From a virus: DNA of 39,249 bases. Below, piece after piece: positions 3,505 to 33,357 of the stretch; the stretch's first letter is position 1; the number at the start of each line of letters is the position of its first letter. A program made the translations under genes and the position numbers. The stretch lies in the IMG/VR virus record IMGVR_UViG_3300045988_033237; one strand, 5' to 3'. The notes under the pieces were generated by a model. That model did not search any database. It saw only the letters and a list, made by a program, of their open reading frames with translations, and was not told the DNA's origin.

Positions 3505-3571
3505 TCGCGCCCCCTCTATTCTGTGGAGAAAACTCCCCACGGAAATTTCAGATATAAGGGCAAACGGTCAT

Positions 3572-3588
3572 GTGTCAGATTCTGACAC
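3572..3588. promoter_or_regulatory. 17-bp palindrome gtgtcaga-t-tctgacac in the HNH-terS spacer (candidate cos/terminase recognition element)
   Basis: 8-bp perfect arms read directly; role inferred only from position. Confidence 0.3.
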
Positions 3589-12282: not shown

Positions 12283-15200
12283 ATGGCTAAGACCTTAATT
12301 GAGATTAGGGCAGAAACGTCGCAGTATCAGCAGGCAATGCGTCAGGCAGCAGCAGAAATGAAAAACCTGACGGCACAGCATTCACTGGCTGCGGCACAAG
12401 CAAAGTTAAGCGGATCCGCGCAGGACGCCCTGCGTGCAAGAGTGACCGAACTGACATCGAAGATAGATGTTCAAAAGGGGATCGTGCAACAGAATGGACA
12501 ACAGTATGACAACTTAAAACAGAAGTTGGAACTGCAAAAAACAGCGCACGATCAGCTGAAGACAAAGGTTGAAGCGGCAAAAAAAGCATATGAAGATAGC
12601 GCGAAAGCGACAGGCGAAGACAGCGAAGAAACACAGAAGCTGAAGGCAGAATATGAAAAGTTGTCTTCGCAGCTGTCCACCAGTGAAAGCCAGATCACAA
12701 AAACAGAAACAGCGATCACGAAGCAGGAAGCGGCAGTGAATCAGTCGAAAGCTGCGCTGACTGAAATGGAAGCGGAATTGAAAAATGTGAACGCAGAACT
12801 TGCGCATGCGCCGTTTGATGAATATGCAGCAAAAGCAGAAAAGGTTGGCGGCACATTAACGAGTGTGGGGCAGAAACTTCTTCCGTTATCGACCGGTATT
12901 GCAGGGCTTGGAGTTGCGGCTGTTAAGACGACAGCGGATTTTGACAGTGAAATGTCGAAAGTATCAGCAATTTCCGGAGCAACAGGAACGGATCTTGATA
13001 AACTGCGAGGAAAAGCCCGTGAAATGGGCGCAAAAACAAAGTTCAGCGCATCAGAAGCTGCACAGGGGATGCAGTATATGGCGATGGCTGGATGGAAGAC
13101 GCAGGACATGATGGACGGCTTGGAGGGCATCATGAATCTTGCGGCAGCATCAGGAGAAGATCTTGCATCGACATCCGACATCGTAACGGATGCCCTGACC
13201 GCCTTCGGACTTTCGGCAAAAGATTCCAGTCATTTTTCTGATATTTTGGCGGCAGCATCATCGAATGCAAATACCAACGTGTCGATGATGGGTGAAACGT
13301 TTAAATACGCAGCCCCAGTTCTCGGATCGTTAGGATACACAGCAGAAGATGCTGCGCTTGCGATCGGATTGATGGCAAATGCAGGTATCAAGTCCAGCCA
13401 GGCGGGAACATCTTTGCGAGGAGCCATCACGAACCTTGCGAAACCAACAGATACTGTCGCGGCTGCGATGGATAAGTATGGAATATCATTGACAGATAGT
13501 TCCGGTAAGATGCTTTCGCTGCGTGAACTGATGGAACAGATGCGGCAGAAGCTGGGTGGACTGTCAGAAGCGGAACAGGCACAGGCAGCAGCGGCATTAT
13601 TCGGAAAGGAAGCAATGTCCGGAATGCTGGCGATCATAAACGGATCAGATAAAGATTTTGAGAAGCTGGCAGGAGCGATCGACAACTGCGATGGATCATC
13701 TGAAAAGATGGCAAACACAATGAATGACAATCTTCAGGGACAGATCACGATCCTGATGTCACAGCTTCAGGAACTTGCTATCAGCTTCGGGGAAATTCTG
13801 ATGCCAAAAATCCGTGATATTGTGACACATATTCAGAACTTTGTGGACAAACTGAATGCAATGGACGAAGGACAAAAAGAAACAATTCTTCGCATCGGAA
13901 TGTTTGTGGCAGCACTTGCGCCGATGCTGATGGGATTGGGGAAAGTGATCACGTTCAGCGCAAATGTATCACGCGCACTTGGAACGCTGTCAGCCGGACT
14001 TGTAAAAGCAGGCGGATTTTCAGGAGTATTCACGAAAGCACTGGGATTGATTACATCACCAGCGGCGATTGTAGTGGGAGTGATTGCAGCAATTACAGCA
14101 GTCATTATTCATTTATGGAATACGAATGAGGATTTCAGAAATACGATCACGGCGATCTGGCAGAAAATCAAAGATGCATTCACAACATTTGCAGCAGGAA
14201 TCAGTGAAAGACTGTCAGCGTTAGGAATTACATTCAGCGACGTGACGTCAGCAATAAAAACAATCTGGGACGGATTCTGTAATTTGCTTGCACCAGTGTT
14301 GGAAGCTGCCTTCAGTACGATTGCAATCGCATTACAAACAGCTTTCAATGTCATTCTTGGAATATGGGATGTATTTTCTGCTGTATTCAGTGGCGACTGG
14401 TCTGGTGCGTGGGAAGCTGTAAAAGGAATTTTTTCAAGCATCTGGGATGGTCTGAAAGAATATTTTTCAACAATAATCGGAGCGGTCAAAGGTGTAGCGG
14501 ATGTTTTTCTTGGATGGTTTGGAACTAACTGGGAAACTGTCTGGAATGGAGTGAAAACCTTTTTTGAAGGAATCTGGAACGGAATTTCTTCGTTTTTTGA
14601 AGGAATCTGGAATGGGATTTCAACATTCTGCACAACGGTGTGGAATGGAATTGTTACAAACGTGACGGCGTTCTGCACGACCGTACACGATACGATCAGC
14701 ACAATCTTTAATGCTGTGAAAGATGTCGTGTCTAATGTGTGGGAAACAATAAAGAATGTGGTTCAGGTTGCGATCATGTTCATAGTGGAAGTTATCAAAG
14801 CAGCATTTGAATTGATAACCGTACCGTTCCGGTTTATCTGGGAAAATTGTAGAGATACGATCATAAGCGTATGGGAAACAATCAAAAGCGCGGTACAGAC
14901 AGCAATCAATTTTGTGAAAGATAATATCATCACGCCAGTGATGAATGCGATCAGCACAACGATCTCGACGGTATGGAATGCGATTCAGACGACATTCACG
15001 ACAGTGATAAATGCAATAAAGTCTGCGGTACAGACGGCATGGAATTTCATGAAGGATAATGTGATCACACCAGTGATGAATGCGATCAGCACAACGATCT
15101 CGACGGTGTGGAACACCATTAAAACAACATTCACGACAGTGATAAATGCAATAAAGTCCGCGGTACAGACGGCATGGAATTTCATGAAAAACAGCGTGAT

Positions 15201-15969
15201 CACGCCTGTAATGAATGGAATAAAAACCGTCATCACAACAGTGTGGAATGCGATCAAAACGGCGGTGCAGACTGTCGTAAATGCGATCAAAACGACGGTG
15301 CAGACTGTATTCAATGCAGTAAAAACAACAGTGACAACAATCTGGAATGCGATCAAAACAGGAACATCGACGGCATGGAATGCAGTGAAGACTGCGGTGA
15401 CAACACCGATCAATGCCGCAAAGTCAGCAGTGACATCTGCGATTAACGGGATTAAGTCAACGATAAGTTCTGTATGGAATAGCGTGAAATCAGCAACGTC
15501 TTCGACATGGAATGCAATCAAGAGAGCGATCACAACACCGATCAATGCTGCAAAAACCGCGGTAGGAAATGCGATCAGTGCGATCCGATCAAAATTCAAC
15601 TTCAGCTGGTCATTACCGCATTTGAGACTGCCTCATCCGTCTATCAGCGGATCATTCAGCTTGAATCCGCCATCAGTTCCACATTTCAGCATTAGCTGGT
15701 ATAAGAACGGCGGTATTATGACGAAACCGACCGCATTCGGGGCGGCAGGCGACACATTGCTGGCAGGAGGAGAAGCGGGAGCAGAAGCAATCCTTCCGTT
15801 GAAACAGTTCTATGACAGGCTGGGCGACATGCTGGATAAAAAGTTGGATGCAATTATGACAGGAACAACGGTATATGTCTATGTAACAATGGACGGCGAA
15901 GTCGTGGCAACGAAAGTATATTCAAAAGTGGAAGAAAAATTCACAGATGAAATAAAACGGAGGAGGTAA
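12283..15969 (+). CDS. Tail tape measure protein (TP901-type core)
   Basis: 1228 aa; N-terminal coiled coil, FDSEMSKVSAISGATG...MGAKTKFSASEAA core, TM segments, C-terminal WNAIKT-type repeats. Confidence 0.95.
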   Translation: MAKTLIEIRAETSQYQQAMRQAAAEMKNLTAQHSLAAAQAKLSGSAQDALRARVTELTSKIDVQKGIVQQNGQQYDNLKQKLELQKTAHDQLKTKVEAAKKAYEDSAKATGEDSEETQKLKAEYEKLSSQLSTSESQITKTETAITKQEAAVNQSKAALTEMEAELKNVNAELAHAPFDEYAAKAEKVGGTLTSVGQKLLPLSTGIAGLGVAAVKTTADFDSEMSKVSAISGATGTDLDKLRGKAREMGAKTKFSASEAAQGMQYMAMAGWKTQDMMDGLEGIMNLAAASGEDLASTSDIVTDALTAFGLSAKDSSHFSDILAAASSNANTNVSMMGETFKYAAPVLGSLGYTAEDAALAIGLMANAGIKSSQAGTSLRGAITNLAKPTDTVAAAMDKYGISLTDSSGKMLSLRELMEQMRQKLGGLSEAEQAQAAAALFGKEAMSGMLAIINGSDKDFEKLAGAIDNCDGSSEKMANTMNDNLQGQITILMSQLQELAISFGEILMPKIRDIVTHIQNFVDKLNAMDEGQKETILRIGMFVAALAPMLMGLGKVITFSANVSRALGTLSAGLVKAGGFSGVFTKALGLITSPAAIVVGVIAAITAVIIHLWNTNEDFRNTITAIWQKIKDAFTTFAAGISERLSALGITFSDVTSAIKTIWDGFCNLLAPVLEAAFSTIAIALQTAFNVILGIWDVFSAVFSGDWSGAWEAVKGIFSSIWDGLKEYFSTIIGAVKGVADVFLGWFGTNWETVWNGVKTFFEGIWNGISSFFEGIWNGISTFCTTVWNGIVTNVTAFCTTVHDTISTIFNAVKDVVSNVWETIKNVVQVAIMFIVEVIKAAFELITVPFRFIWENCRDTIISVWETIKSAVQTAINFVKDNIITPVMNAISTTISTVWNAIQTTFTTVINAIKSAVQTAWNFMKDNVITPVMNAISTTISTVWNTIKTTFTTVINAIKSAVQTAWNFMKNSVITPVMNGIKTVITTVWNAIKTAVQTVVNAIKTTVQTVFNAVKTTVTTIWNAIKTGTSTAWNAVKTAVTTPINAAKSAVTSAINGIKSTISSVWNSVKSATSSTWNAIKRAITTPINAAKTAVGNAISAIRSKFNFSWSLPHLRLPHPSISGSFSLNPPSVPHFSISWYKNGGIMTKPTAFGAAGDTLLAGGEAGAEAILPLKQFYDRLGDMLDKKLDAIMTGTTVYVYVTMDGEVVATKVYSKVEEKFTDEIKRRR
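14890..15294 (+). repeat. Tandem 135-bp (45-aa) in-frame repeats inside the tape measure gene, about 3 copies
   Basis: gcggtacagac... restarts at 14890, 15025 and 15160; copies 1 and 2 near-identical, copy 3 diverged. Confidence 0.85.
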
Positions 15970-15972
15970 AGC

Positions 15973-16671
15973 ATGATCATAAACGGGATTGACGTCAGAA
16001 GATACGGGGCGACATTACTGACGGCAGAAACAAAGCCCCCGAAGATGACGGCAAACTATGAAATGATGCCAAAAGCACTTCTTCCGACAGAGTACGACAC
16101 AGATATTCCACTGGGTTCTATGACAATGACCATATACTTCAGGGGAAAGAACAGGGCGACACTGGAAAGAACAATGTCATCTTTTATGCAGAATTTCAGG
16201 TCATCCTGCATTATGGAAGAAATCAGAGGATTCAAAGGAAAATACAAAGGTTTTCTGGCTGGCGATGATTACGAAAAAACGCTTGAAAAGGAAAAAAGAA
16301 TTCTGACATTAGAATTTGATGGATTCTTTTTTGACGATGAAGCAGAAGGGATATTTGATCAGGAACTGGAAGGAAAGCTGTACGCAGAAGGAAGCCGGGA
16401 TACACCTTGCATTATTGAAGTGACAGCAAAAGCGGATCTGACAAACTATAAGATAACACTAAACGGGGAACCGTACACTATTGAAAGCCTGATGAATGGC
16501 GAAACGATTGTGATTAACGGGAAGACCGGAAAAATAACAAAGGAAGGGGATAACGCTTTCGGATCCGTGGATCTGTGGGCGTTCCCTAAACTGAAAACGG
16601 GAAGAAATGACCTTACGTTTTCAACGAATGGCGCAAGGGTAACAGTCAGGTATTCCCCAATGTGGTTATAA
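15973..16671 (+). CDS. Distal tail protein (Dit-like)
   Basis: 232 aa immediately after tape measure; MIINGIDVRRYGA N-terminus typical of phage tail family proteins. Confidence 0.75.
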   Translation: MIINGIDVRRYGATLLTAETKPPKMTANYEMMPKALLPTEYDTDIPLGSMTMTIYFRGKNRATLERTMSSFMQNFRSSCIMEEIRGFKGKYKGFLAGDDYEKTLEKEKRILTLEFDGFFFDDEAEGIFDQELEGKLYAEGSRDTPCIIEVTAKADLTNYKITLNGEPYTIESLMNGETIVINGKTGKITKEGDNAFGSVDLWAFPKLKTGRNDLTFSTNGARVTVRYSPMWL

Positions 16672-16684: not shown

Positions 16685-18403
16685 ATGCTTCAGATATATG
16701 ATGATCAGCACAGGAGAATTGCAGGAATAGATGATCCGGATGATCTAAAAATTGAAAAAACATTATCATCCGGAGATAAGCAGATTTCATTCAGTTATCC
16801 GAAAACAGGATCAGAAATTGAAAATCTGCGGGCTGAATATTATATCAGGACAAAAGATGATGAATATGTTCTGAAGGAAATAAACACAGGAGAAAATAAA
16901 AACAGTTATGTAGCACAGCTGAATATAGAAGAACTGGAATCACAGGAATTTCTGTACGGATTTGAGAGTGTAACACAGACGGCGCGCGCCTGCTTGGAAT
17001 TCGCTTTTGATGGAACAGGTTGGACGGTTGGAATTTGTACAGTAACAAAGCGGAGAACAGTCAGCATTGATGAAACGTGCAATGCTTGGGATGTACTTCA
17101 GGAGGTTATGGACACATACAGATGCGAATGCAAGATCGACAACATCCAGAAGAGAATAGACCTATATGAAGCGATCGGAATGGATCGCGGAGCGTATTTC
17201 ATAGAAGGATTAAACCTGCGGAAATTGACACTGAAATCAGATACATATGATTTCTATACAAGGATTTATCCAGTGGGAAAAGATGGGATCACACCGGAAA
17301 TTATGCTGGGGGTTCCGTATATTGACAATCATCAGTATTCAGATAAAGTGATTCCACGCTATTGGAAAGATGAACGATACACCATCACTGAAAATCTGAT
17401 CGAAGATGCGACTGCGAAGCTGGACACAGCATCGAAGCCGTATACAGCATATACTGCTGACGTTGCGGATCTAGCATCACAGAAAAAGGAATACAGCATT
17501 CTGGAATATGACATCGGTGATACAGTGCATCTGATTTCAAAAACGGAAGCTACAAAAGAAAAACAGCGGATCGTGAAGATGACGGAATATCCGCAACATC
17601 CGGATAAAAACACCTGTGAACTTTCTAATGCGACAAAGAGTTTTGCACAGCTTCAGGAAGAAACAGAAGAAAAAATGAAGTCCGATGCAGTGGATCAGGC
17701 ACAGGCAAGGACAAGGAAAACGCTGAACGAAGGATACTGGACAATCGAACAGGCGCAGGCTGCAATTAAATCTTCAGAAAGCGGAATCATGACATCAGTT
17801 CAACAGGTTAGAACAGAACAAAGGGATCTGACCTATGCAGCAGAACAGGAAGCGAAAGACTATGCTTCACAGCTGAATGAAAAGACCATTGAAAGAATGA
17901 CAAATGAATATTCAACAGCGCTGAATCAGACTGCAAATTCATTTGATATGTCTATTAAGTCGGTCGAAGAAACTGTGACATCGCAGGGCGACGAACTGGA
18001 AGAATTCAGAAAAGAGAATGAAACATATTTCCATTACACGGATGATGGAATGGAAATCGGAAAAAAGCAGGATGGCGGGGTGTTGCCGTTTTCAACATTG
18101 CTATCTAACAAAAGACTGGAATTCAGACAGGAAGGCGTTCCGGTGGCATATGTGCAGTACAACAAGCTGCACATTGAAAATGTCGAAGCGGTGCGAAGAT
18201 GGTCAGTCGGAGCAGCAGACGACGGAGGATACTTTGATTTCATATCTACACAGTACGGGATGGGCGTGAAATGGAGAGAAGCGGAGCAGGTGGAAGAAAC
18301 GGCAACACAGAGCGTCAAAAGGCAAAAACAGAAACAGAAACAGAAACAGGAATACAGACAGCTGATCGACGATGATGGAATATTCGAGGTAGTAAAAGTA
18401 TGA
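16685..18403 (+). CDS. Tail-associated minor structural protein (Tal-like)
   Basis: MLQIYDDQHRRIAGIDD...LSSGDKQISFSYPK N-terminal region typical of siphophage Tal; synteny. Confidence 0.75.
   Translation: MLQIYDDQHRRIAGIDDPDDLKIEKTLSSGDKQISFSYPKTGSEIENLRAEYYIRTKDDEYVLKEINTGENKNSYVAQLNIEELESQEFLYGFESVTQTARACLEFAFDGTGWTVGICTVTKRRTVSIDETCNAWDVLQEVMDTYRCECKIDNIQKRIDLYEAIGMDRGAYFIEGLNLRKLTLKSDTYDFYTRIYPVGKDGITPEIMLGVPYIDNHQYSDKVIPRYWKDERYTITENLIEDATAKLDTASKPYTAYTADVADLASQKKEYSILEYDIGDTVHLISKTEATKEKQRIVKMTEYPQHPDKNTCELSNATKSFAQLQEETEEKMKSDAVDQAQARTRKTLNEGYWTIEQAQAAIKSSESGIMTSVQQVRTEQRDLTYAAEQEAKDYASQLNEKTIERMTNEYSTALNQTANSFDMSIKSVEETVTSQGDELEEFRKENETYFHYTDDGMEIGKKQDGGVLPFSTLLSNKRLEFRQEGVPVAYVQYNKLHIENVEAVRRWSVGAADDGGYFDFISTQYGMGVKWREAEQVEETATQSVKRQKQKQKQKQEYRQLIDDDGIFEVVKV
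18326..18349 (+). repeat. (AAACAG)4 in-frame microsatellite (KQKQKQKQ)
   Basis: Counted directly near the 3' end of CDS 16685..18403. Confidence 0.9.
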
Positions 18404-19914
18404 GTACGACAAGAAGAGAAGTACCAGTCACAAGTATATATGCAAAGGCTGTCTTCACTGGGAACGTCAGCGGAGATGTGACAACAATCACATCCGTAAC
18501 GTTCACGCAAAATGAAGACGACTGGCTGCTGGGCGTAAAAAAAGAAGATATGCCATCAGTCATGATCATTGATGGAAAACAATACAGATGGACAGTGCAT
18601 TCCTACTTTACATTAAATACCATCGTAGCACAAGGAACATGGGTAAAAAAAGCAACACTGAACATTGGAACAAAGCTGACGATCAGAAAACCATTCTTCA
18701 AAATTGTATACGGTCAGAATCCGACACAAGAAGGAACAGAAATGACCTTTTCATTTTACGATCTGGGATCATTTGTGCCATACGGATTTGATCCGGGGGC
18801 TTCGGAATTTGAAATTGATGGAAAGACGGCAGTTCCTATCAATATAGAAAATGCAGATGAAGATTCACTGTTTTCTGTGAAACTGTCATCTGATGCAACG
18901 TACAGATTCAAGTGGGCGATTGGATCAAAGTCGTATACGCTGGACAAAAAAACGTCCGGAGCGACAAGGATCAATACAAGCTATACTATACCGAAAAGCT
19001 GGAATGAAGAGATAAAAAACAGTACAGCGGGTTCCTGTACACTTTCAGTTCAGGTACTGTTTGGATCGCAGGTATATCAATCAAGGGATACTGCGGTGAG
19101 GGCGACAGTCCCGGATGATTGTGTCCCGGTGATCAATTCCATATCCATCGCGGATACAAAAGGGCGTGTCCCTGCGGCGTGGGGGATGTTCGTGGAACAT
19201 AACAGCAATATAGCCATTACAGCAGCGAATATCACAAAGTCATACGGTGCGGATATTGTATCAGTCAATATGGAACTGAATGACAGGACATATTATGGAA
19301 CGCCTTCTGCATTGCCACAGTCATATATGTTGGAAGACTATGGGATCATGGACGTGACAGTGAAGATCCGTGATACAAGAGGACGGACGGCAGAAAAAAC
19401 TGCAAAAGTGACAGTCGTGGAATATAATCCGCCGACGATTCAGGTGGATTCTATGAGGTGCGGACAGGATGGAACACTGGAAAATGAAGGCGTATATTTT
19501 TTAGCGACGACAGACAGCACATATTCAACTTGCAACGGAAAGAATAAAGCAACACTTCAGATGCAGTATAAACTTTCAAGTCAGGGCGCATATACGTCAG
19601 CAGTGAAAGAACTTCCGATCGGGGAAGCGACAACTGTTTGCGGCGGGGATCTGAATACAGAATTTTCATATGATGTTCGTTATGTGCTGAAAGATACATT
19701 CAATACAGTGACCGTCATTGACTTCGTATCAACAGCGGTATATGCAATGCATTTTTTGCATGGTGGGCGCGGTGTGGCTTTTGGATCGAAGGCAACCGTG
19801 GAAAACGCAGTGGATTTTACTTTTGATGCGATATTCAGGCATGGGGTGAAATTCATAAAATCAGATGGATCCGAAGTGACAATGCAGCAGATCTTGAACA
19901 AACTCGGATTATAG
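18400..19914 (+). CDS. Tail/baseplate structural protein, uncharacterised
   Basis: 504 aa, ATGA coupling to Tal gene, beta-rich composition; function from position only. Confidence 0.55.
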   Translation: MSTTRREVPVTSIYAKAVFTGNVSGDVTTITSVTFTQNEDDWLLGVKKEDMPSVMIIDGKQYRWTVHSYFTLNTIVAQGTWVKKATLNIGTKLTIRKPFFKIVYGQNPTQEGTEMTFSFYDLGSFVPYGFDPGASEFEIDGKTAVPINIENADEDSLFSVKLSSDATYRFKWAIGSKSYTLDKKTSGATRINTSYTIPKSWNEEIKNSTAGSCTLSVQVLFGSQVYQSRDTAVRATVPDDCVPVINSISIADTKGRVPAAWGMFVEHNSNIAITAANITKSYGADIVSVNMELNDRTYYGTPSALPQSYMLEDYGIMDVTVKIRDTRGRTAEKTAKVTVVEYNPPTIQVDSMRCGQDGTLENEGVYFLATTDSTYSTCNGKNKATLQMQYKLSSQGAYTSAVKELPIGEATTVCGGDLNTEFSYDVRYVLKDTFNTVTVIDFVSTAVYAMHFLHGGRGVAFGSKATVENAVDFTFDAIFRHGVKFIKSDGSEVTMQQILNKLGL

Positions 19915-19929: not shown

Positions 19930-20736
19930 GTGGCACTTGGAAAAGTAATTCAGCGAATTGAAATCGAAATGTCGGGTGGGACAAAACAGTATATGGTGTC
20001 TGCAAAACAGGGAGATCGGGCAACAAGATATGTCGAAACCGTACTACTGAATCATGGGGAACCGTACACGATCCCGGCAGGATCCAGCGTCACAGCTTTC
20101 ATCAGAAAACCAGATAGACACAGGGTATATACACCGTGTGAATTCACGGACAATGTTGTGATGGTGGAATTGGACAGTCAGGCACTGGCAGCAGCGGGAA
20201 CGGCATTGTGTGAAGTGGAAGTGAAATCTTCAGATCTGATGCAGGTGGTAACATCGGTCACTTTTGAAATAGAGATTGAAGCAAAGGTGAAAGATGAAGA
20301 TGCGATCGTTTCGGGCGATGAACTTTCTATCTTCGATAAGACAATGAAACAGTATGCTGATCAGGAAACGAAACGTGTGAACGCAGAAGAAGCCAGAGTG
20401 CAGGCAGAAACAGGTCGCGTGAAGGCAGAGGAAGCCAGAGTGCAGGCAGAAACAGGTCGCGTGAAGGCAGAGGAAGCCAGAGTGCAGGCAGAAACAGGTC
20501 GTGTGAACGCGGAAAAAAGCAGAGTGTCAGCAGAAAGTGATCGCGTCACGGCAGAACAGGAAAGACAGAAGCAGGCGAATGAAGTTCTGGATAAGGCAAA
20601 TGAAGCTGTAAAAATTGCGGGGCAGATCAATGAAGCGTCATATATGTTGGATAAAGATGAAAATATCAAATATGCATATGCAATTTATACAGAACGGGGG
20701 ATCCCGCATCTGGCATTAACACCGATCAATGAGTAA
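19930..20736 (+). CDS. BppU-N-like fibre/baseplate protein with coiled-coil stalk
   Basis: GTG after aggaggga; N-terminal SAKQGDRATRYVETVLL...YTIPAGSSVTAFIRKPD resembles BppU N-domain; 14-aa repeat stalk. Confidence 0.6.
   Translation: MALGKVIQRIEIEMSGGTKQYMVSAKQGDRATRYVETVLLNHGEPYTIPAGSSVTAFIRKPDRHRVYTPCEFTDNVVMVELDSQALAAAGTALCEVEVKSSDLMQVVTSVTFEIEIEAKVKDEDAIVSGDELSIFDKTMKQYADQETKRVNAEEARVQAETGRVKAEEARVQAETGRVKAEEARVQAETGRVNAEKSRVSAESDRVTAEQERQKQANEVLDKANEAVKIAGQINEASYMLDKDENIKYAYAIYTERGIPHLALTPINE
20383..20508 (+). repeat. 3 x 42-bp tandem in-frame repeats (AEEARVQAETGRVK)
   Basis: Units at 20383..20424, 20425..20466 and 20467..20508, counted base by base. Confidence 0.95.
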
Positions 20737-20753: not shown

Positions 20754-22463
20754 ATGGAAGGAATTGATTTATCATTTCCGTCTTATGCACAGCATGAGAG
20801 AATGGCGGCGGCACTGGAAGCGATCGCACTGAATGGCGGACAGAATTCGGCGGAAGCACTTGACGCTGCGTGCAGACAATTACTTGACGGAACAAATACA
20901 ACACGGGTTTTCTGGTCATGGTATCCGCGTGCGCTGGCAGCAGGAGAAACAGACAAGTATAAATTGCTTTCACGATTTGCAACAGCAGCAGCGCAGGCAT
21001 GGAATGGAAAGACATATACACTGCGAAGCTATGATCAGTCAGTATCAGGAATAACAAAAATGACACCGATGGATGATCTGGCAGATAAAGCGGCAGCACA
21101 GCTATGTACAGAAAATACTGAAGCGGTCGAGGACTGGGCGGATGAAGATCCGATGACATGGTATATCAGAGCAAACGCGCTGTCACTGGAAGACGGAACC
21201 ATGAACATCACATATTTTGAAGGTGAAGACGGTTTTGACATCACTGGTGAAGATGCACCAGTATATACATTTGCGCTTGCATTATGGATTAAAGAATGGA
21301 ATGACGGTGCATACGATTATATTTCATTCAGAACAACAAGGGGATCCGGCTATTATCCGGATGCGGGGGATGTGGATCCGAAAAATAAAAAGCGACTGAT
21401 CACATGGCACGCAACATTCCCCGGTGGTCTGGACAGCAAAGGCGCGTTGACATCCGGCGCAGGGATCAAGGCATATAACTTCGCATCAGCAACGGCAGGG
21501 ATCCAGAAGGCACGACAGAAAACAATTTATGAAGGACTGTGGAATGACTGCGATACAAGATGGATTCTTCGTATGTGGCAGTTAAGGCATTTTGATCTGG
21601 AAAACTCAAACATTGCCGAAGGATGCACAAATTACAACTATCAGTACATGGCGGCGTTGCCGGAAGAAAATGTGAAAAGGGTTCTTCTGTCTGCAAGTCA
21701 GGCAGCAGGATTCATTGTCGGATCCACGGTATCGGTTGGTGATATGGGCGCACAGTCGAATAAAGACAGATGGAATGCATGGATGCGTAACCTTGCGGAT
21801 CTGGTGAAAGTATCTTCAATCGAAAAAGTAACAGTAAACGGAACGGAATACACAGCGATCAATCTTGACATCAGCGGAACGATCACAACGACAGCAACAA
21901 CGTGTATTTCAACTATGCCGTGGCATTCGGGCGCAACAGAAGCATTGCCGGGACATAAAGACGGATGCACATTCAGCCTGACAGCAGGAAAGACACCGCT
22001 TCGTGTTGCTGGTGTAGAAGTTTTGGATGGATCATATACGATCGGACTGGATCCACTGTATGACACGACTGCAAACGAAGCAGGAGGATTTGATTATACT
22101 GTGTATCAGTGCCGCGACAGTCAGAAACTGTCAGGATCAATCACAGCGGACTATGAAGATACAGGCATTGTATATTCCGGTATGCCGTCCGGATGGAACT
22201 ATGTGAAAGCATTTATCAAGTCAAAGTTGGGTGTGCTGTTTCCGAAGCTGATCGGCGGATCTTCAACGACTTATTTTAAGTCGGCTTTCTACGGTGCCTA
22301 CTCCGCCGGGGTTCGCTGCCCGTGGCGTTTTGCGCTCTTGAGCTCTGGCGGGGCTGCTGGTCTGGCTGCGGAGGCTGGCAGCGTTGCGCCGGGTAGCTCG
22401 TACTGGTACAGTCGTCCGCGGCTTTGTGGCGCGGGTAAAAAGCGGGGTGAATGGTCTGCGTAA
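20754..22463 (+). CDS. DGR target protein: putative receptor-binding tail fibre protein with C-terminal variable (C-type-lectin-like) region
   Basis: 569 aa, last gene of tail module; last ~50 codons are the VR; NAGL...NNAPGNSNWN-type sequence (seen in the TR reading) is typical of CLec-fold DGR targets. Confidence 0.85.
   Translation: MEGIDLSFPSYAQHERMAAALEAIALNGGQNSAEALDAACRQLLDGTNTTRVFWSWYPRALAAGETDKYKLLSRFATAAAQAWNGKTYTLRSYDQSVSGITKMTPMDDLADKAAAQLCTENTEAVEDWADEDPMTWYIRANALSLEDGTMNITYFEGEDGFDITGEDAPVYTFALALWIKEWNDGAYDYISFRTTRGSGYYPDAGDVDPKNKKRLITWHATFPGGLDSKGALTSGAGIKAYNFASATAGIQKARQKTIYEGLWNDCDTRWILRMWQLRHFDLENSNIAEGCTNYNYQYMAALPEENVKRVLLSASQAAGFIVGSTVSVGDMGAQSNKDRWNAWMRNLADLVKVSSIEKVTVNGTEYTAINLDISGTITTTATTCISTMPWHSGATEALPGHKDGCTFSLTAGKTPLRVAGVEVLDGSYTIGLDPLYDTTANEAGGFDYTVYQCRDSQKLSGSITADYEDTGIVYSGMPSGWNYVKAFIKSKLGVLFPKLIGGSSTTYFKSAFYGAYSAGVRCPWRFALLSSGGAAGLAAEAGSVAPGSSYWYSRPRLCGAGKKRGEWSA
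22281..22428 (+). repeat. DGR variable repeat (VR)
   Basis: 148 bp aligning to 22538..22685 at offset 257; 20 mismatches, all at TR adenines. Confidence 0.92.
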
Positions 22464-22470
22464 GCAGACC
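22453..22470. promoter_or_regulatory. Hairpin ggtctgc-gtaa-gcagacc just 3' of VR, spanning the target stop codon
   Basis: 7-bp perfect stem and 4-nt loop read directly; the position matches the VR-flanking hairpin/cruciform known from the Bordetella phage DGR. Confidence 0.6.
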
Positions 22471-22537
22471 AGAGGGGCAAGACCACTCATACACACCTAA
22501 CAGGAAAAGAAAATAAAAAGGGTATGCAGGCGCGGGA

Positions 22538-22685
22538 TCGGCTTTCTACGGTACCAACTCCGCCGGGGTTCGCTGCCCGTGGCGTTTTGCGAACTTGAAC
22601 AATGGCGGGAATGCTGGTCTGGCTGCGGAGAATGGCAACAATGCGCCGGGTAACTCGAACTGGAACAGTCGTCCGCGAATTTATG
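22538..22685 (+). ncRNA. DGR template repeat (TR), template portion of the TR RNA
   Basis: Non-coding invariant copy of VR; 29 adenines; reads as 11 AAY codons in the VR frame; RT gene 195 bp downstream. Confidence 0.92.
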
Positions 22686-22880
22686 TATTTATGAAGGCAG
22701 GTGAAAACTTGCTGAAATGTGTCTGTATATCCGCGCATAAGCGAAAATCAGTAAAACCGGAAGCCGGGAAACCGGCATGTATAACCGTGGGTTATGCGTG
22801 CGGCAAGTAGTAACAAGACGAATTCTGATTCAAGGATCTGTCGCAACCGAAAGTCGCTTCACACATAAAGTAAAAATAAG

Positions 22881-24275
22881 ATGGCACATAAAAAGAGATA
22901 TAAAAAGTTAAGCAGGCAGCTGTGCGAACAGGCAGTTGTTGAATGTTTCAAAGGAAAATGGAGAAGAAACGATGTACTGACGTTTATTGAAAAGTATGCA
23001 GGAATTCCACGCGACGATATAAAAATAGATGATTTATCCGGATCGTGGAAGTATAAAAATGAAGCTGTTGAAGCGATTGGCTTGGTAATGCTTGGGATTG
23101 TGGAAGATCTGGTCGATCACGGAATAGAACCGGATGATATGGAACCAGTGACGATCCGGCAGCGTCCGGATGGAATGACAGGAAAGATCAGGGACATTGC
23201 ACTGTTGTGCATTATGCATCAGCTGATCGGTCATATTACGAAACTGATGATAGAACCATTGATTCAGGCGCGATTGCTTCCAACACAACATGCAAGCATT
23301 CCGGGACACGGGCAGACAATGCTGAAAGATCAGATGTTGCGTTATTTCCTGAAGGAATCGCTGGGAATTGAATATGTGAGAAAAACAGATGTTGTACATG
23401 CATATGCTTCGCTTCAATACGATGTATGCATAGATCTGGTGATGGTGGAGATTCCGAAAGCAAGATATGCGATCGGGCTGCTGAAATATTTGAAAAGCGT
23501 CGCACCGGGTGGACATCTGATCATCGGCGGGTATCTTGACGCATGGCTTTTTAATTTTACGATGTCGTATGCGATCCGCTATCTGTACACGCTGGGATCA
23601 ACGCGAAGAGGGAAAAAGATACCGTATGTTATACGCTGCGGAACATTTATGGATGATTTTTCGATAGGATCCGGATCTATAAAAGGAGAACAGCGGGCAG
23701 TGAAAGCATTGGACAAGTGGTTAACAAAGAATCAGCACTTGCAGATAAAAGAAACGACAGGAATTATTAAGCTGTTGCCGATTGAAGAAGAAAAGCGAAG
23801 GCGAAATCTGCCGCGTCCGGGGCAAAGGGGCGTCCCGATGCTGGACATGGCAGGATACAGAATCAGCAGAACACACATCACGATCCGGCGGCGCGTATTC
23901 AAAAGGGCAAGACGACAGCTGATACGCGGATATAGAGAACTGAAGCGTGACGGAACACTGCGCCGTGAACGGGCGCAGAAGATAATATCGTATAACAGCT
24001 ATATTGAACAATCTGATTCATTCCATTTACAAGAAAGATACCACACAGAAGAACTGCTTCAGGTGGCGCATCGCGTAAATGGATTCTATGGACAACTGGA
24101 ATATCAGAAAAGAATGGAGGAATTGCATGATTTACTTGAACGTAGATGCAGATCAGAAGCCGGAAAAGGTAATGATGGAAAATCTTCCGGGTGGCGCAAT
24201 GACCGTCAGGATGGCGGACAATATCAAGGAATACCGTCAGGAAGACGCAAAGGATCGGAAGATGTACCGTTTTGA
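22881..24275 (+). CDS. DGR reverse transcriptase
   Basis: RT motifs by eye: GKIRDIALL...HASIPGHGQ (1-2), YVRKTDVVHAYASL (3), IIGGYLDAWLFN (4), FMDDFSI (5), LQIKETTGIIKL (6), MLDMAGYRI (7); N-terminus CFKGKWRRNDVLTF resembles Brt; weak RBS; last ~50 codons overlap the next ORF. Confidence 0.9.
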   Translation: MAHKKRYKKLSRQLCEQAVVECFKGKWRRNDVLTFIEKYAGIPRDDIKIDDLSGSWKYKNEAVEAIGLVMLGIVEDLVDHGIEPDDMEPVTIRQRPDGMTGKIRDIALLCIMHQLIGHITKLMIEPLIQARLLPTQHASIPGHGQTMLKDQMLRYFLKESLGIEYVRKTDVVHAYASLQYDVCIDLVMVEIPKARYAIGLLKYLKSVAPGGHLIIGGYLDAWLFNFTMSYAIRYLYTLGSTRRGKKIPYVIRCGTFMDDFSIGSGSIKGEQRAVKALDKWLTKNQHLQIKETTGIIKLLPIEEEKRRRNLPRPGQRGVPMLDMAGYRISRTHITIRRRVFKRARRQLIRGYRELKRDGTLRRERAQKIISYNSYIEQSDSFHLQERYHTEELLQVAHRVNGFYGQLEYQKRMEELHDLLERRCRSEAGKGNDGKSSGWRNDRQDGGQYQGIPSGRRKGSEDVPF

Positions 24276-24528
24276 TGAAGTGGTGTTTGAACTTCCGGCG
24301 GACAGCACGATCACGACAAAACAGATCGAAGATGACTTTGAAAAATACTGGGAGTACGGGAAGACTGATCAGGCTGGAAAAGACGAAGACATGAAAGATG
24401 ATGAACCGGATCCGGAAAGTGGGGGAATGACGCGGGCAGAAATGACCGTTGAAATTCAGAAACTTCAGGAAAAAAATGAAATGCTGGAATCCTGTCTGCT
24501 GGAAATGTCGGAGCTTGTATATGCTTAA
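24127..24528 (+). CDS. Hypothetical acidic protein
   Basis: ATG 24127 after ggaggaattgc; upstream part of ORF 24079 overlaps the RT; C-terminal coiled coil EIQKLQEKNEMLESCLLEM. Confidence 0.55.
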   Translation: MIYLNVDADQKPEKVMMENLPGGAMTVRMADNIKEYRQEDAKDRKMYRFDEVVFELPADSTITTKQIEDDFEKYWEYGKTDQAGKDEDMKDDEPDPESGGMTRAEMTVEIQKLQEKNEMLESCLLEMSELVYA

Positions 24529-24983: not shown

Positions 24984-25415
24984 ATGAAAGAAGGAATCTG
25001 CACTGCTGTTGGAGTAGTGGGAAGCGCGATTGCAGCTGCTTTCGGTGGATGGGATCAGGCACTTGTGACGTTGGTGATCTTTATGGTGATTGATTATTTA
25101 TCGGGGCTGATTGTTGCGGGAATTTTTCACAACAGCAGAAAAACAGAAAATGGAGCGTTGGAAAGCAGAGCCGGATGGAAGGGGCTGTGCAGAAAAGGTG
25201 TGACATTGCTGTTTGTGTTGATCGCATACCGTCTGGATCTTGCGCTGGGTGTAAATTATATTCGCAATGCAGTGATCATTGGATTCATGGCAAATGAATT
25301 GATCAGCATCACGGAAAATGCCGGACTGATGGGAATTCCACTTCCGACAGTGATCCAGAATGCAATCGAAGTTTTGACACGAAAAGCATCTGTGTCAAAG
25401 GATGGTGAACAGTAA
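24984..25415 (+). CDS. Holin (phage_holin_4_1 / TcdE-like family)
   Basis: Multiple TM helices, VIDYLSGLIVA and NELISITENAG motifs characteristic of this holin family; adjacent to the endolysin. Confidence 0.85.
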   Translation: MKEGICTAVGVVGSAIAAAFGGWDQALVTLVIFMVIDYLSGLIVAGIFHNSRKTENGALESRAGWKGLCRKGVTLLFVLIAYRLDLALGVNYIRNAVIIGFMANELISITENAGLMGIPLPTVIQNAIEVLTRKASVSKDGEQ

Positions 25416-27058
25416 TGAAAAAAGAATATCTGACAATTTTGACCAACATTATCGGCGGCGTGGAATCTGGCGGGCAGACATACGGAAAAAGAAAATATGG
25501 TGCGTATGCCGGAAAAGCAGCAAATGCAGACAATGAAAAAACGTGTACATTAGGCTGGGCGCAAAATTATGGGAATGAAGGCAGAAGATTGTGTCAGATG
25601 ATCCTGAAGGCAGATCCGAAAGCCTTCAGGACTGCTGACACAGCAGGAATCGAAAAGAAACTGTCAGTAGACTGGGAAGCTACAAGATGGAATCCGACAG
25701 CAAAAGAAAAGGCTGCATTGATTGCGATTATCACAACGGATGCAGGAAAAAAGTGTCAGGATGATTTATTCAAGGAACTGATGGAAAAATACATCGCTGA
25801 AGCTGAAGCATATGGAGTTGATAATATACAGGCACAGATGATGTGGTGCGAAATAGAACATCTTGGTGGTTTGAAACCAGTAAAACGAATTTTTGCGAGA
25901 GCGAAAAAGCCATATACACCTGATACAGTGTATGCATCGCTGATCTTGGATCAGAAGGATACAAGCAATGATAATCAGGTGGGGGATAAAAAGTTTGAAA
26001 GCAGACATCAGTGTTGCGTGCGGTGGATTAAACAGTATGTTGTGGACAATGTGGATAAATCAGGGGAAGAAGGTGTAAAAATGTATTCAAGACAAGCAGT
26101 TGTGGATCTGGTAGAAAGCTGGATCGGAAAAAATGAAGCGGATGGATCATATAAATCAATTATTGATATTTACAATAGTTTCACAGGTGCATTCCCACGC
26201 GGGACAAAAATGGCGTATGAATGGGAGTGGTGCGCTTGCACTTGGTCGGCACTTGCCGTTGCGTTAAAATATACGGCAATTATGCCGATTGAAATCAGCT
26301 GCTATTATCTGATTGAAAGAGCGAAGCAGATGGGCGTATGGGAAGAAAATGACGCACACGTTCCGAAGCTGGGCGAAGCGACGCTGTATGATTGGCAGGA
26401 TAACGGTGTGGGCGACAATACCGGAACACCGCGTCATGTTGGAACGGTTACATACGTTAATCAAGCAGCAGGATATTTTGTCGTTACCGAAGGCAATTAC
26501 AGCGACAGCGTGAAGAAAAGAACTGTATCACTGAATGGAAGATATATTCGAGGATTTATCACACCAAAATATGACAGTGATCAGGCGGAAAGCAAGCCAG
26601 TAAATACGCCGGGAAAGAGCGTGTCAACCGTAGCGCATGAAGTAATTGCGGGACAGTGGGGGAACGGAGAAGCAAGAAGAAAAGCACTTTCGGCAAGCGG
26701 TTATGATCCGGATACTATTCAGAAAGAAGTAAACAGAATTCTGAATGGATCAGCGGCAACAACTGCGAAGCCACAGCCAGCAGATCAGACCATCAGCAAA
26801 ACAGTCAAGTCAACATGCTATGCGAGAGAGTACGACAAGAAACTGGCGGGATCCTACGTCACAACAGCTGATCTGTATTGCAGAAACGACGCTGGAAAGA
26901 ACAAAAAGGCTTTGTGCTGCATTCCGAAAGGAACCACAGTGCATAATTACGGCTATTATAATACATCGAATGGAACGAAATGGTTATACATTACTGTGAC
27001 GCTTGATGGAGTGGAGTATATCGGATTCAGTTCAATCAGTTACCTGAAAGCAAAATAG
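25415..27058 (+). CDS. Multidomain endolysin: unknown N-domain + CHAP + Cpl-7 (CW_7) + SH3b
   Basis: CHAP: WCACTWSA...RHVGTV...TEGNYSD; CW_7: VIAGQWGNGEARRKALSASGYDPDTIQKEVNRIL; C-terminal SH3b-like WLYITV...GFSSISYL. Confidence 0.85.
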   Translation: MKKEYLTILTNIIGGVESGGQTYGKRKYGAYAGKAANADNEKTCTLGWAQNYGNEGRRLCQMILKADPKAFRTADTAGIEKKLSVDWEATRWNPTAKEKAALIAIITTDAGKKCQDDLFKELMEKYIAEAEAYGVDNIQAQMMWCEIEHLGGLKPVKRIFARAKKPYTPDTVYASLILDQKDTSNDNQVGDKKFESRHQCCVRWIKQYVVDNVDKSGEEGVKMYSRQAVVDLVESWIGKNEADGSYKSIIDIYNSFTGAFPRGTKMAYEWEWCACTWSALAVALKYTAIMPIEISCYYLIERAKQMGVWEENDAHVPKLGEATLYDWQDNGVGDNTGTPRHVGTVTYVNQAAGYFVVTEGNYSDSVKKRTVSLNGRYIRGFITPKYDSDQAESKPVNTPGKSVSTVAHEVIAGQWGNGEARRKALSASGYDPDTIQKEVNRILNGSAATTAKPQPADQTISKTVKSTCYAREYDKKLAGSYVTTADLYCRNDAGKNKKALCCIPKGTTVHNYGYYNTSNGTKWLYITVTLDGVEYIGFSSISYLKAK

Positions 27059-29696: not shown

Positions 29697-30780
29697 ATAG
29701 AAGGAGAAAGCGGAGATGGAAAGAACGTTCAAACATTTGACAAAAGCAGACCGGATCAGAATTGAAGCATTGATAAAAGCGGGAGTAAAAATCAAAGAGA
29801 TCGCGGACATGCTACATGTGCATAGAAGCACGATATACAGAGAGTTAAAAAGAGGACGTTTTACTGCGCTTAATTCAGATCTGACAACGGAAGAAAGATA
29901 CAGCCCTGATATTGCACATGATAAATATGAAGAAAATCTGAAAAGTAAAGGGGGCAGTCTGAAGATCGGGAATGACATCAAACTGGCAAATTATATTGAA
30001 GAAAAGATCGTGAAAGAAGATTACAGTCCGGCGGCGGTACTGGGGGAAATTAAGGCACAACAAAAAGAAAGCGAATTCAGCGTGATGATCTGCACAACAA
30101 CACTGTACAGTTATATTGATAAAGGGATCTTTCTACATCTGACAAATAAAAATCTTCCGGTTAAAAAGAATAAGAAACGCACATACAAAAAGGTCAAGAA
30201 AACGCAGGCAAGAGCGTCAGCGGGTGAAAGTATAGAAAAAAGACCGGAAGAAATTGAAACACGCGAAGAGTTTGGACACTGGGAGATGGACACGGTAAAA
30301 GGAAAGCGCGGGAAATCAAAGAACAGTCTTCTTGTGTTGACTGAAAGAAAAACACGCGATGAAATTGTGATGAAGTTGCCAGAGCATACGGCGGCAGCAG
30401 TTGTCAACGCGCTGGATGTGATCGAAAGAAAGTGGGGCGATATGTTCAAACAAGTATTTAAAACGATTACGATGGATAACGGAAGTGAATTTGCAGACTG
30501 TGAAGGAATTGAACGGTCAGCACTGGGAGCAGGCAGCAGGACAAAGACATATTATTGTCATCCGTACAGCAGCTATGAAAGAGGAAGCAACGAAGTGACA
30601 AATAAAATGATCAGAAGACATATTCCAAAAGGAACAAACTTCGATGAAAAAACGGATGAAGAAATATCTGCGATTGAAAGCTGGGTGAATAATTATCCGC
30701 GTAAGATCCACGGCTATCATTCAGCGGGCGAACTGTTTGAAGAGGAGATCCGGAAAATCAGTTGAAAAAAGTTAAAAAAG
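29697..30780 (+). mobile_element. Putative IS30-family element (boundaries not resolved)
   Basis: Extent guessed from the flanking terminator (29696) and promoter/operator (30781); I could not find convincing terminal inverted repeats. Confidence 0.3.
29716..30765 (+). CDS. IS30-family DDE transposase
   Basis: N-terminal HTH (IKEIADMLHVHRSTIYRELKRG), catalytic HWEMDTV ... TMDNGSEF ... YERGSNE spacing typical of IS30. Confidence 0.9.
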   Translation: MERTFKHLTKADRIRIEALIKAGVKIKEIADMLHVHRSTIYRELKRGRFTALNSDLTTEERYSPDIAHDKYEENLKSKGGSLKIGNDIKLANYIEEKIVKEDYSPAAVLGEIKAQQKESEFSVMICTTTLYSYIDKGIFLHLTNKNLPVKKNKKRTYKKVKKTQARASAGESIEKRPEEIETREEFGHWEMDTVKGKRGKSKNSLLVLTERKTRDEIVMKLPEHTAAAVVNALDVIERKWGDMFKQVFKTITMDNGSEFADCEGIERSALGAGSRTKTYYCHPYSSYERGSNEVTNKMIRRHIPKGTNFDEKTDEEISAIESWVNNYPRKIHGYHSAGELFEEEIRKIS

Positions 30781-32355: not shown

Positions 32356-33357
32356 ATGACAGCAACAGAAGAAAGACCAGTGCAGATTTTGGAACTATTC
32401 GGAGGAATAGGAAGCCCGCGATGTGCATTGCGAAATCTGAAGATACCAACAAAAGCGATCGACTACGTTGAAATTGATGAAAAAGCAGTCCGATCTTATA
32501 ACAATATGTTCAGTGAAGAACTGCTATACAAAACACAGTCTGTTGTGGGATGGAATCTGAAGCCGGACATTTTAATACATGGAAGTCCGTGTCAAGATTT
32601 TAGCATAGCCGGACATCAAAGAGGGGCAGACGAAGGAAGTGAAACAAGATCGAGTTTGATGTGGGAAACGATTCACATCATTGACCAGATGGGAGAATGG
32701 AAACCGAAATATGTAATCTGGGAAAATGTGAAAAATGTGACATCGAAACATATGATCGCGAATTTTGTGCGTTATCAAAAAGAGATGGAACGTATGGGCT
32801 ATACAAATAATTACGATGTTTTAGATGCAAGAGAATTCGGACTGCCACAAGCACGCGAAAGAGTGTTCACGATCAGTTGCCTGAATGGTGAAAAATTTGA
32901 TTTCACAAGCCTGATCAGGACGCCTATGCGTAAAATCAGCGAATTTTTGGAAGATAACGAAAACGTTCCGGAAGTATATAACGTCACACAGCCATCTGTA
33001 TATAACGTGATCGGCGCGTCGGGAATAAAAAGAGCGACAGTGATCAAAGACTTTGCTTATACGATTACAACGCGACAGGACAGAACACCAGCGCAGGTGA
33101 TTGACTGTGGATCAGGAAGATACCGATACTTGACAGAACGGGAATGCTGGCGACTGATGGGATATACAGACGAAGAATTTGAAGCAGCGAAAGCTGTGCA
33201 TGAGAGAAAAGGAAGATATTACATGACACTGTATAAACAGGCGGGGAATAGCATAGCGGTTCCGATATTTGAAAGCATCTTCCGAAAGATAATTCTGGGA
33301 GAGGAGAAAACAAAGAAGGATGACAGTGAACGTCAGAAAGGCGATGCAGGACGTTAG
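32356..33357 (+). CDS. DNA (cytosine-5)-methyltransferase, orphan
   Basis: Motifs I ELFGGIGS, IV GSPCQDFS, VI ENVKNV, VIII QARERVF, X GNSIAVP; no adjacent restriction endonuclease. Confidence 0.92.
   Translation: MTATEERPVQILELFGGIGSPRCALRNLKIPTKAIDYVEIDEKAVRSYNNMFSEELLYKTQSVVGWNLKPDILIHGSPCQDFSIAGHQRGADEGSETRSSLMWETIHIIDQMGEWKPKYVIWENVKNVTSKHMIANFVRYQKEMERMGYTNNYDVLDAREFGLPQARERVFTISCLNGEKFDFTSLIRTPMRKISEFLEDNENVPEVYNVTQPSVYNVIGASGIKRATVIKDFAYTITTRQDRTPAQVIDCGSGRYRYLTERECWRLMGYTDEEFEAAKAVHERKGRYYMTLYKQAGNSIAVPIFESIFRKIILGEEKTKKDDSERQKGDAGR

Follow-up and report, generated by a model that had tools for sequence, protein, structure and literature searches.

The virus record IMGVR_UViG_3300045988_033237 of IMG/VR, a stretch of 39,249 nt with a GC content of 44.3 % that is referred to below as the window, was analysed for a candidate diversity-generating retroelement (DGR). 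An earlier note, made from the sequence without database searches, had read a non-coding template repeat (TR) beside a reverse transcriptase (RT) as diversifying the C-terminus of a tail-module protein, in which the variable repeat (VR) lies. This core reading agrees with the 67 related loci and 88 protein variants described below. The cassette also extends further than was then proposed, to a conserved small open reading frame (ORF) ending at 24528. Its features are as follows.

20754..22463, + strand: target gene, 569 aa, last of the tail/baseplate module; an ORF matching PHROG 17147 at 8.5e-129
22281..22428, + strand: VR, the 148-bp repeat copy inside the target gene, with 20 mismatches to TR, all at TR adenines
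22291..22410, + strand: variable part of VR, with 26 positions opposite TR adenines in 11 AAC codons and in the codons TAC, ACC, GAG and AGT
22411..22454, + strand: recipient-specific end of VR resembling an initiation of mutagenic homing (IMH) site, with the GC-rich start GTCGTCCGCGGC, fixed differences at 22421, 22422 and 22426, and a 21-mer
22452..22471, + strand: first hairpin or cruciform, TGGTCTGC-GTAA-GCAGACCA, with the TAA stop codon of the target in its loop
22472..22488, + strand: second hairpin, GAGGGG-CAAGA-CCACTC, with one mismatch in the window
22538..22685, + strand: TR, non-coding, matching VR over 148 bp without gaps
22686..22880, + strand: conserved TR-RT spacer, with a structured RNA core of ~123 nt at 22743-22865
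22881..24275, + strand: RT, 464 aa, matching PHROG 1423 'reverse transcriptase' at 9.4e-36
24127..24528, + strand: ORF2, a small acidic protein of 133 aa and pI 4.28, with a GGAGG ribosome-binding site and in another frame than RT

The repeat pair

Computed realignment confirmed the mismatch count of the earlier note. VR and TR differ at 20 of 148 ungapped positions, with 20 of the 29 TR adenines changed and none of the 119 other positions; the hypergeometric probability of this A-only placement is 3.7e-18. The boundaries of the repeat are sharp at both ends. VR forms, in frame, the end of the coding sequence 20754-22463, and TR read in the same frame holds 11 AAC codons, all of which are changed in VR to exactly the residues listed previously (Y, L, S, S, A, A, S, V, S, Y and Y). 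The distances of 257 bp from VR start to TR start and of 195 nt from TR end to RT start were likewise correct.

The 20 mismatches had all been taken as products of diversification, and this was borne out for 17 of them. The remaining three, which account for an I to L change, a Y to C change and a silent cga to cgg change, are fixed in relatives: VR positions 22421, 22422 and 22426 are constant, with L557 in 87 of 88 related proteins, C558 in all 88, and G, C and G in 10-11 of 11 close loci. From this constancy they are best described as fixed IMH/IMH*-type differences and not as mutagenesis products. Because these last differences are fixed, the number of mutable adenines is 26 rather than 29, the last variable one lying opposite VR 22410. 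The resulting peptide repertoire is 15^11 x 4^4, or ~2.2e15. A second target within the window was considered and rejected, since no further TR-like copy was found in the window on either strand, even with A positions ignored.

Variation among relatives

Scans with an RT profile yielded 46 viral contigs and 21 genome contigs, giving 67 loci. A repeat pair with at least 80 % of its mismatches at TR adenines was found in the same place in 54 of the 67, at RT identities of 39-99 %. Of the 13 loci lacking a pair, eight are cut short upstream and five (L007, L018, L033, L057 and L062) have more than 1 kb there. VR ends a target of ~570 aa in 46 of the 49 loci tabulated and one of ~1000 aa in L061, L064 and L065. 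In most loci TR begins 52-120 nt after the stop codon, and RT begins 188-289 nt after TR.

Protein variation was determined from an alignment of 88 target versions at least 93 % identical. Column entropy was 2.6-3.4 bits at each of the 11 AAC codons and 0.9-1.25 bits at Y513 (TAC), T515 (ACC), E540 (GAG) and S553 (AGT), against a mean of 0.04 outside the repeat. VR peptides were unique in 87 of the 88 proteins. Changes from A to any nucleotide can yield 1319 of the 1320 residues at A-containing codons, and the amino acids at AAC codons are limited to the 15 that such changes can reach, with Asn kept in 18.6 % of cases. One position behaved differently: A511 (GCT, 22284-22286), at the 5' edge of the repeat, where the TR codon has no A, is V, T, S, G or P in 18 of the 88 proteins. 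This is the sole recurrent non-A variation and was not seen in the 11 close DNA loci.

At the DNA level, nine close loci have flanks 96.5-98.9 % identical to the window, a TR 97-100 % identical and a VR core 85-89 % identical. Across 11 close loci, 26 of the 29 TR adenine positions vary in VR, whereas TR is identical in eight of the 11, the window's TR being that of seven others. The check that the earlier note had proposed on related assemblies thus came out in its favour, with VR polymorphic at TR adenine codons and TR nearly invariant. Two non-A substitutions in TR, T14C in L010 and C38T in L050, recur in the cognate VRs; because these changes of TR are mirrored in its own VR, the direction of information transfer is from TR to VR. 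Two fragments in GenBank, derived from human faeces and belonging to the same phage, end inside the repeat and have other VRs again. By these comparisons the DGR has been recently active at the level of the lineage.

In one locus, L006 (IMGVR_UViG_3300014798_000202), the TR at 3658-3805 departs from all others at adenine positions 18, 19, 55 and 60, and the VR shares the TR's bases at two of those four. This could reflect VR-to-TR conversion, that is, self-mutagenesis of the template, or an assembly chimera of both repeat copies. The protein P0266 resembles the same kind of chimera at the protein level.

An origin of the pair as a duplication that diverged by ordinary mutation or gene conversion would account for the existence of a direct repeat, and nothing beyond that favours it. 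The improbability of the A-only pattern in the window, the same pattern in 54 related loci, the restriction of AAC-codon residues to the 15 reachable ones and an adjacent RT closest to that of the Bordetella phage BPP-1 (bRT) all oppose it, and we give this origin practically no weight.

Reverse transcriptase

The identification of 22881..24275 as an RT, proposed earlier from motifs, is weak by Pfam but was supported by the PHROG match and by three further comparisons. A phmmer comparison with bRT gave E = 0.97. With a 23-member RT profile, bRT was the sole RT matched among PDB sequences (E = 1.2e-3), and hhalign of a 54-member RT profile against bRT gave a probability of 95.5 % (E = 1.6e-8, 242 columns). 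The AlphaFold model of RT (predicted local distance difference test, pLDDT, 87; predicted template modelling score, pTM, 0.81) had as its top Foldseek match the DGR RT 8ub7_A (E = 3.2e-13, TM 0.75 on target), ahead of group II intron, G2L4, DRT9 and retron RTs. By predicted fold and by profile, the RT is closest to the Bordetella phage DGR RT.

The reading frame and catalytic residues are intact. Invariant residues are D170, D258 and D259 (FMDD) and R104, the last being the counterpart of bRT R74, which promotes misincorporation opposite A. Residues 428-464 are disordered.

This C-terminal tail, encoded within 24127-24275, is Gly/Arg-rich and ends in EDVPF, and the single-stranded DNA-binding protein (SSB) of the phage (1213-1647) ends in IPEGIDEELPFN. 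A mimic of the SSB tip, in which the RT tail, ending in EDVPF where the phage's own SSB ends in DEELPFN, would recruit host factors, was considered and downgraded. The tail lies in the stretch shared with ORF2, where the conserved MYRFDE codons of ORF2 impose VPF-stop on the RT frame; RTs with ORF2 elsewhere (L048) have no such tail, and distant RTs overlap far less and stop sooner. The likeness to the C-terminal tip of SSB probably arose incidentally from the overlapping codons of ORF2.

Recipient end and hairpins

By sequence, IMH/IMH*-type ends and an inverted repeat after VR are both present. The 21-mer GGTAAAAAGCGGGGTGAATGG (22434-22454) encodes GKKRGEW and is found family-wide, being kept down to ~40 % RT identity, and the last 18 nt of TR (22668-22685, ending ...CGCGAATTTATG) form an IMH*-like end. 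By analogy with the IMH of BPP-1 (PMC5758913), the VR end may act as an IMH.

DNA folding of 22405-22500 gave z = -4.97. Across the family the first hairpin is perfect, with up to 8 bp, and its loop is often GTAA and holds the stop codon of the target. When either hairpin was counted, the best stem near the stop codon had 8 bp in 15 of 28 distinct loci, with 20 different sequences. First-hairpin stems vary among loci (TGGTCTGC, TGGACGTC, TGGGCGGC and others) with pairing kept, and since the sequences differ while pairing stays, the structure is under selection. The second hairpin is perfect in most relatives (AGAGGGG..CCCCTCT). This arrangement matches the GC-rich inverted repeat that follows IMH in BPP-1, where efficient retrohoming depends on it; 34 % of DGRs have an inverted repeat in this place (PMC5758913).

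Spacer RNA and transcription

The structured part of the TR-RT spacer contains four helices.

22763-22766 with 22773-22776, + strand: spacer helix
22777-22786 with 22789-22799, + strand: spacer helix
22800-22804 with 22853-22857, + strand: spacer helix
22817-22826 with 22833-22842, + strand: spacer helix

Conserved joining segments are AAAATCAG, GTAGTAAC and AACCGAAAG. RNAalifold, applied to a MAFFT alignment of 23 diverse loci, gave 24 pairs, 20 of them with compensatory changes. In that alignment 91.2 % of cells pair, compared with 35-47 % when partners were slid by 1-3 columns, and double-sided changes numbered 134 compared with 23-40; the observed values were reached in none of 500 shuffles. 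A covariance model of the 125-position core (R1) found one match per locus in 64 loci, including loci outside model building, and always just upstream of RT. Its only match in the window is 22743-22865 (E = 4.6e-24), which scores as well as the cores of relatives, and it had no match in BPP-1 or phage Arawn. In the R1 alignment, which was fitted to the structure and leans towards it, 92.5 % of cells pair compared with 32-45 %, and 23 of 26 pairs have compensatory changes. A known RNA family was rejected, as no Rfam family matched the spacer. By analogy with BPP-1, the spacer RNA most likely serves as the portion of the DGR RNA to which RT binds and at which priming occurs.

A separate promoter or terminator for TR was also rejected. 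Consensus scans found neither a sigma-70-like promoter nor an intrinsic terminator between the target gene and TR, and since nothing of this kind separates the two, read-through transcription from the tail operon is plausible on this sequence evidence.

Target protein

The gene order is tape measure protein (TMP), Dit, Tal, DUF859 protein, BppU_N protein, target, RT, three small ORFs, holin and endolysin. The target gene had no Pfam or NCBIfam match, and aa 445-558 match phrog_5302 'tail protein'. Its VR-bearing domain is the C-terminal 140 aa, a module that ends proteins of 340-1160 aa in 243 clusters at 50 % identity. No Pfam match was obtained for this module in 19 family members or 10 remote relatives, the module profile had no match among PDB sequences at E <= 10, and hhalign of the target against Mtd gave 10 %, with no detectable similarity. 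AlphaFold modelled the target poorly (mean pLDDT 43.5; almost every residue of 389-569 fell below 50), and a Foldseek search with this model gave no PDB match at E <= 1e-3 and, in BFVD, only two uncharacterised phage proteins. A homology search with divergent targets, meant to deepen the alignment, mostly gave the same cluster again. The fold suggested previously, that of C-type lectins (CLec), was thus tried by PDB, Mtd and Pfam profile searches, which were negative, and by structure prediction, which failed. According to Roux et al. 2021 (PMC8144416), VR regions that have an annotation systematically belong to CLec, and VR domains not yet characterised may be more variants of this fold; for the domain studied here we treat CLec as a prior expectation and nothing more.

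Diversification of VR most likely changes what the phage tail binds, and an interpretation as tropism switching rests on gene order and on known viral DGR targets. Alternatively, the DGR might be active on a decoration protein or accessory tail protein whose ligands are different, such as glycans of mucus or of non-host cells, with no switch of tropism. Such a target would fit the lack of a match to any characterised receptor-binding protein and of a fold assignment, the presence upstream of BppU_N and DUF859 proteins that could bind the receptor in its place, and the occurrence of the same prophage, at 98-99 % identity, in different genera. Against it, the gene ends the tail module directly after the BppU_N baseplate protein, its C-terminal domain has the PHROG 5302 match given above, and viral DGR targets are mostly tail proteins acting in host attachment (PMC8144416). 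We consider a non-receptor target unlikely.

ORF2 and accessory functions

The earlier description of the DGR as complete holds for the minimal target-TR-RT architecture, which is present; it does not hold for the accessory gene avd, which was rejected elsewhere in the window after none of 40 ORFs scanned with Pfam matched the Avd family. The element is filed under the Avd-less architecture and not under BPP-1-type Architecture B.

ORF2 overlaps the last 149 nt of the RT gene. With a profile hidden Markov model it was found in all 65 loci that extend far enough, and its N-terminal domain of ~80 aa was seen by tblastn in most loci; other neighbours (ORF3, ORF4, holin and the BppU_N protein) are lost with divergence. 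Of 22 related loci measured, 18 have ORF2 overlapping the 3' end of RT, by 38-152 nt. L048, L056 and L069 have ORF2 placed between target and TR, where BPP-1 has avd. The family is uniformly acidic (pI 4.05-4.37) and 100-136 aa long. Comparison with Avd by hhalign gave 0.09 %, so the two are unrelated, and ORF2 had no match among PDB sequences or in Pfam and a weak one to PHROG 37768 (function unknown). Among 50,697 phage records it occurs only in this phage's own fragment, and it is absent from Arawn and BPP-1.

The possibility that ORF2 is an ordinary tail-module or morphogenesis gene travelling with the target, and not retrohoming machinery, is evenly balanced against a role in the cassette; on that view the element would be a genuine Architecture A, free of accessories. 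In a curated set, 29 % of DGRs have no accessory gene (PMC5758913), ORF2 directly follows the target gene and not RT in L048, L056 and L069, and its acidity is unlike the nucleic-acid-binding Avd, a basic protein that forms a four-helix bundle. A passenger would be less expected to persist in every assessable locus while holin, ORF3, ORF4 and BppU are lost, to overlap the RT 3' end in most loci measured, which suggests translational coupling, to be missing from phage records other than this phage's own fragment, and to take the avd position in L048. ORF2 is therefore kept as a candidate component of the cassette, either a non-Avd accessory or a partner of the target. An accessory role has at best an even chance; if true, ORF2 would represent a new class of DGR accessory factor.

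Comparison with known systems

The prototype DGR of BPP-1 (mtd-avd-TR-brt) shares several traits with the window element. In both, VR closes a tail protein gene at its 3' end, TR is non-coding and lies upstream of RT with spacer RNA between the two, the differences are A-specific, the IMH-like end is GC-rich and carries differences from the TR end that are fixed, VR is followed by an inverted repeat whose loop has 4 nt, and the cassette is placed between tail and lysis genes. Its bRT is also the best structural and profile match of the window RT. The two differ in that avd was not found among the 40 ORFs scanned, ORF2 being unrelated to it; in the RT, which has 464 aa compared with 328 aa, is 16-17 % identical and reads IGGYLDA where bRT has IGSLTSQ; in the target, which has no detectable similarity to Mtd; and in the spacer RNA, whose model misses BPP-1.

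In its working the element resembles the BPP-1 DGR, and in layout it fits the Avd-less Architecture A1 (PMC5758913), with a TR-RT core lacking avd, HRDC and MSL, a single adjacent target and a probable phage association. For Lineage 3/3a, Wu et al. 2018 (PMC5758913) proposed a small acidic accessory, CH1, which has a pI of 4.7, measures 160-169 aa and is found only in Bacteroides and relatives. ORF2 is similarly a small acidic ORF conserved beside RT; compared by description only, it differs from CH1 in its shorter length, its lower pI (4.05-4.37) and its occurrence in phages of Clostridia.

The cultured rumen phages Arawn and Idris of Butyrivibrio (NC_048848), whose host is a member of the Lachnospiraceae, have the same succession of tail protein with VR, GTAA-loop hairpin with stop codon, TR, spacer, RT and lysis genes. 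Their RT is, by contrast, 26 % identical over 58 % of its length, and they have no ORF2 homologue and no spacer-RNA match. In Arawn (L072, NC_048848) the repeats at 3234-3344 and 3476-3586 form an unannotated DGR with nine VR/TR mismatches, all at TR adenines, and the hairpin GCGTC-GTAA-GACGC holds the stop codon. The genome paper of Arawn and Idris read the RT as a prophage-immunity function (PMC7372960).

Viral DGR clades 1, 4 and 6 (Roux et al. 2021, PMC8144416) and the Hodor-associated prophages are also Firmicutes gut phages with RT between structural and lysis modules and with VR forming the 3' end of a tail-associated gene. In one group of Hodor-associated prophages (PMC12934698) IS30 transposases lie at the ends, and the window encodes an IS30-type transposase. 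A 2026 preprint described the DGRs of these IS30-bounded gut Bacillota prophages as having Avd upstream of RT and a GC content of 47.6-58.9 % (PMC12934698). Identity with the Hodor-associated prophages is unlikely, given the GC content of 44.3 % in the window and the Avd reported there.

Interpretation and proposed mechanism

An A-only TR/VR pair, a DGR-type RT beside TR and, between assemblies, a hypervariable VR against an invariant TR occur together at this locus. We read it as a functional DGR with a minimal target-TR-RT layout in a temperate siphovirus of human-gut Clostridia, with a probability of about 0.88.

In the proposed mechanism, an RNA of TR (22538-22685) and the structured spacer (22686-22880) would be made, probably by read-through of the tail operon. 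RT would bind the structured spacer and cDNA synthesis would start near the TR 3' end, between TR 22667 and 22678, with TR copied faithfully except opposite adenines. The cDNA would then replace VR, and the GC-rich IMH-like end, the 21-mer and the hairpin may mark VR as the recipient and set the 3' boundary. The expected outcome is random recoding of 11 Asn and four other codons, giving up to ~2e15 peptides in the C-terminal domain of the target. For the RNA intermediate, the priming site, the roles of IMH and hairpin, any part played by ORF2 and receptor binding, this scheme presumes that the element follows BPP-1 biology.

Several observations weigh against this interpretation. The RT scores 21.1 bits on Pfam RVT_1, below the cut-off of 29.6, and lacks the SQ of the DGR RT signature motif [I/V/L]GxxxSQ of the fingers/palm region (PMC7826257), with I215-G216-G-Y-L-D220-A221-W222 where bRT has I181-G-S-L-T-S-Q187. 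No match to the Avd family was found among the 40 window ORFs, and BPP-1 needs Avd. The VR domain received no fold assignment in Pfam, PDB, Mtd and Foldseek comparisons, and the argument for receptor binding and tropism switching is drawn from gene order. About 2 % of residues at A-less codons differ from the TR-encoded residue, notably at A511, which is unexplained. Finally, variation was compared between assemblies, at the level of the lineage, and not within reads of this genome's sample.

With respect to the signature motif, IG is kept, and in place of SQ stands DA, or AW if the hhalign register is followed. Across 54 homologues the HLIIGGY segment and D220 are invariant and A221 is nearly so. 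In bRT, Q187P leaves the frequency of misincorporation opposite A unchanged. Since A-specific TR/VR differences are seen in every member of this SQ-less RT family that has sufficient sequence, SQ is evidently not needed for this outcome; the motif is a signature of most known DGR RTs and not a requirement of the mechanism. Judged from the alignment, the missing SQ marks the RT as a divergent lineage.

Some of the same observations would fit a relic, in which diversification took place in the past of the lineage and the element is now inactive in this genome. The second hairpin is mismatched in the window and not in relatives, Avd was not found among the window ORFs, and the evidence for variation comes from assemblies and not from reads. 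A relic is nevertheless very unlikely: VRs differ between genomes whose flanks are 96.5-99 % identical, uniqueness holds for 87 of the 88 VR peptides, the window TR equals that of seven other close loci, and both the RT, with its frame and catalytic residues intact, and the RNA core, which scores as well as those of relatives, appear undamaged.

A functional DGR of this kind is expected biology, as gut-phage DGRs with tail targets and Avd-less DGRs have already been described. Of interest are the absence of SQ, the structured RNA specific to the family, the stop-codon hairpin and the acidic ORF2 with its strict co-occurrence. Wu et al. 2018 (PMC5758913) raised the question of how DGRs without Avd work. 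One tentative and rather doubtful answer is Avd-free retrohoming by a lineage-specific ribonucleoprotein composed of the SQ-less RT, the ~123-nt spacer RNA and an ORF2 translationally coupled to RT. As a case of Avd-independent retrohoming the lineage is tractable: public assemblies contain it very often, natural populations already show the full A-to-N repertoire, near-identical prophages in cultured Hominifimenecus and Fusicatenibacter isolates make its parts testable, and the conserved RNA, hairpin and ORF2 are concrete parts to mutate.

Distribution and genome context

At least 389 proteins belong to the RT family. There are 4688 members in its nearest 90 % cluster and 8019 in the cluster of the target, and hundreds of near-identical versions of the target protein are present in public assemblies. 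RTs 98-99 % identical to that of the window were found in contigs of Hominifimenecus microfluidus CLA-AA-H215, Fusicatenibacter faecihominis CLA-AA-H277 and MGYG-HGUT-00065, and remoter copies in metagenome-assembled genomes of Oscillospiraceae and other Clostridia from deer, rabbit and rumen. Annotated phage records held no close relative of the RT, save unannotated fragments of this phage.

Pfam scans placed the following genes around the cassette.

12283-15969, + strand: TMP
15973-16671, + strand: Dit
16685-18403, + strand: Tal
18400-19914, + strand: DUF859 tail protein
19930-20736, + strand: BppU_N baseplate protein
24984-25415, + strand: holin
25415-27058, + strand: CW_7 endolysin

Elsewhere in the window lie these genes.

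29716-30765, + strand: IS30-type transposase, with HTH_38 and rve domains, matching PHROG 4646 'transposase' at 3e-143
498-950, + strand: PemK/MazF-like toxin
32356-33357, + strand: C-5 cytosine methylase
33570-34478, + strand: Rep (ORF2/G2P-like)
36332-37111 and 37497-38864, + strand: ParA/ParB pair

The window probably represents an entire phage genome, given that many of the related contigs measure 38.8-39.6 kb. Among the window ORFs scanned, neither a tyrosine nor a serine integrase was detected. In the 'IScream' phages, which have no canonical integrase, IS30-family transposases at the prophage ends serve as integrases (PMC12247996), and the IS30-type transposase inside an otherwise complete siphovirus genome of ~39 kb would fit this group. 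The toxin, methylase, Rep and ParA/ParB genes suggest plasmid-like maintenance or replication functions. Over the whole window (1-39249) a strong strand bias was observed, with a GC skew of 0.22, an AT skew of 0.25 and all called genes on the + strand.

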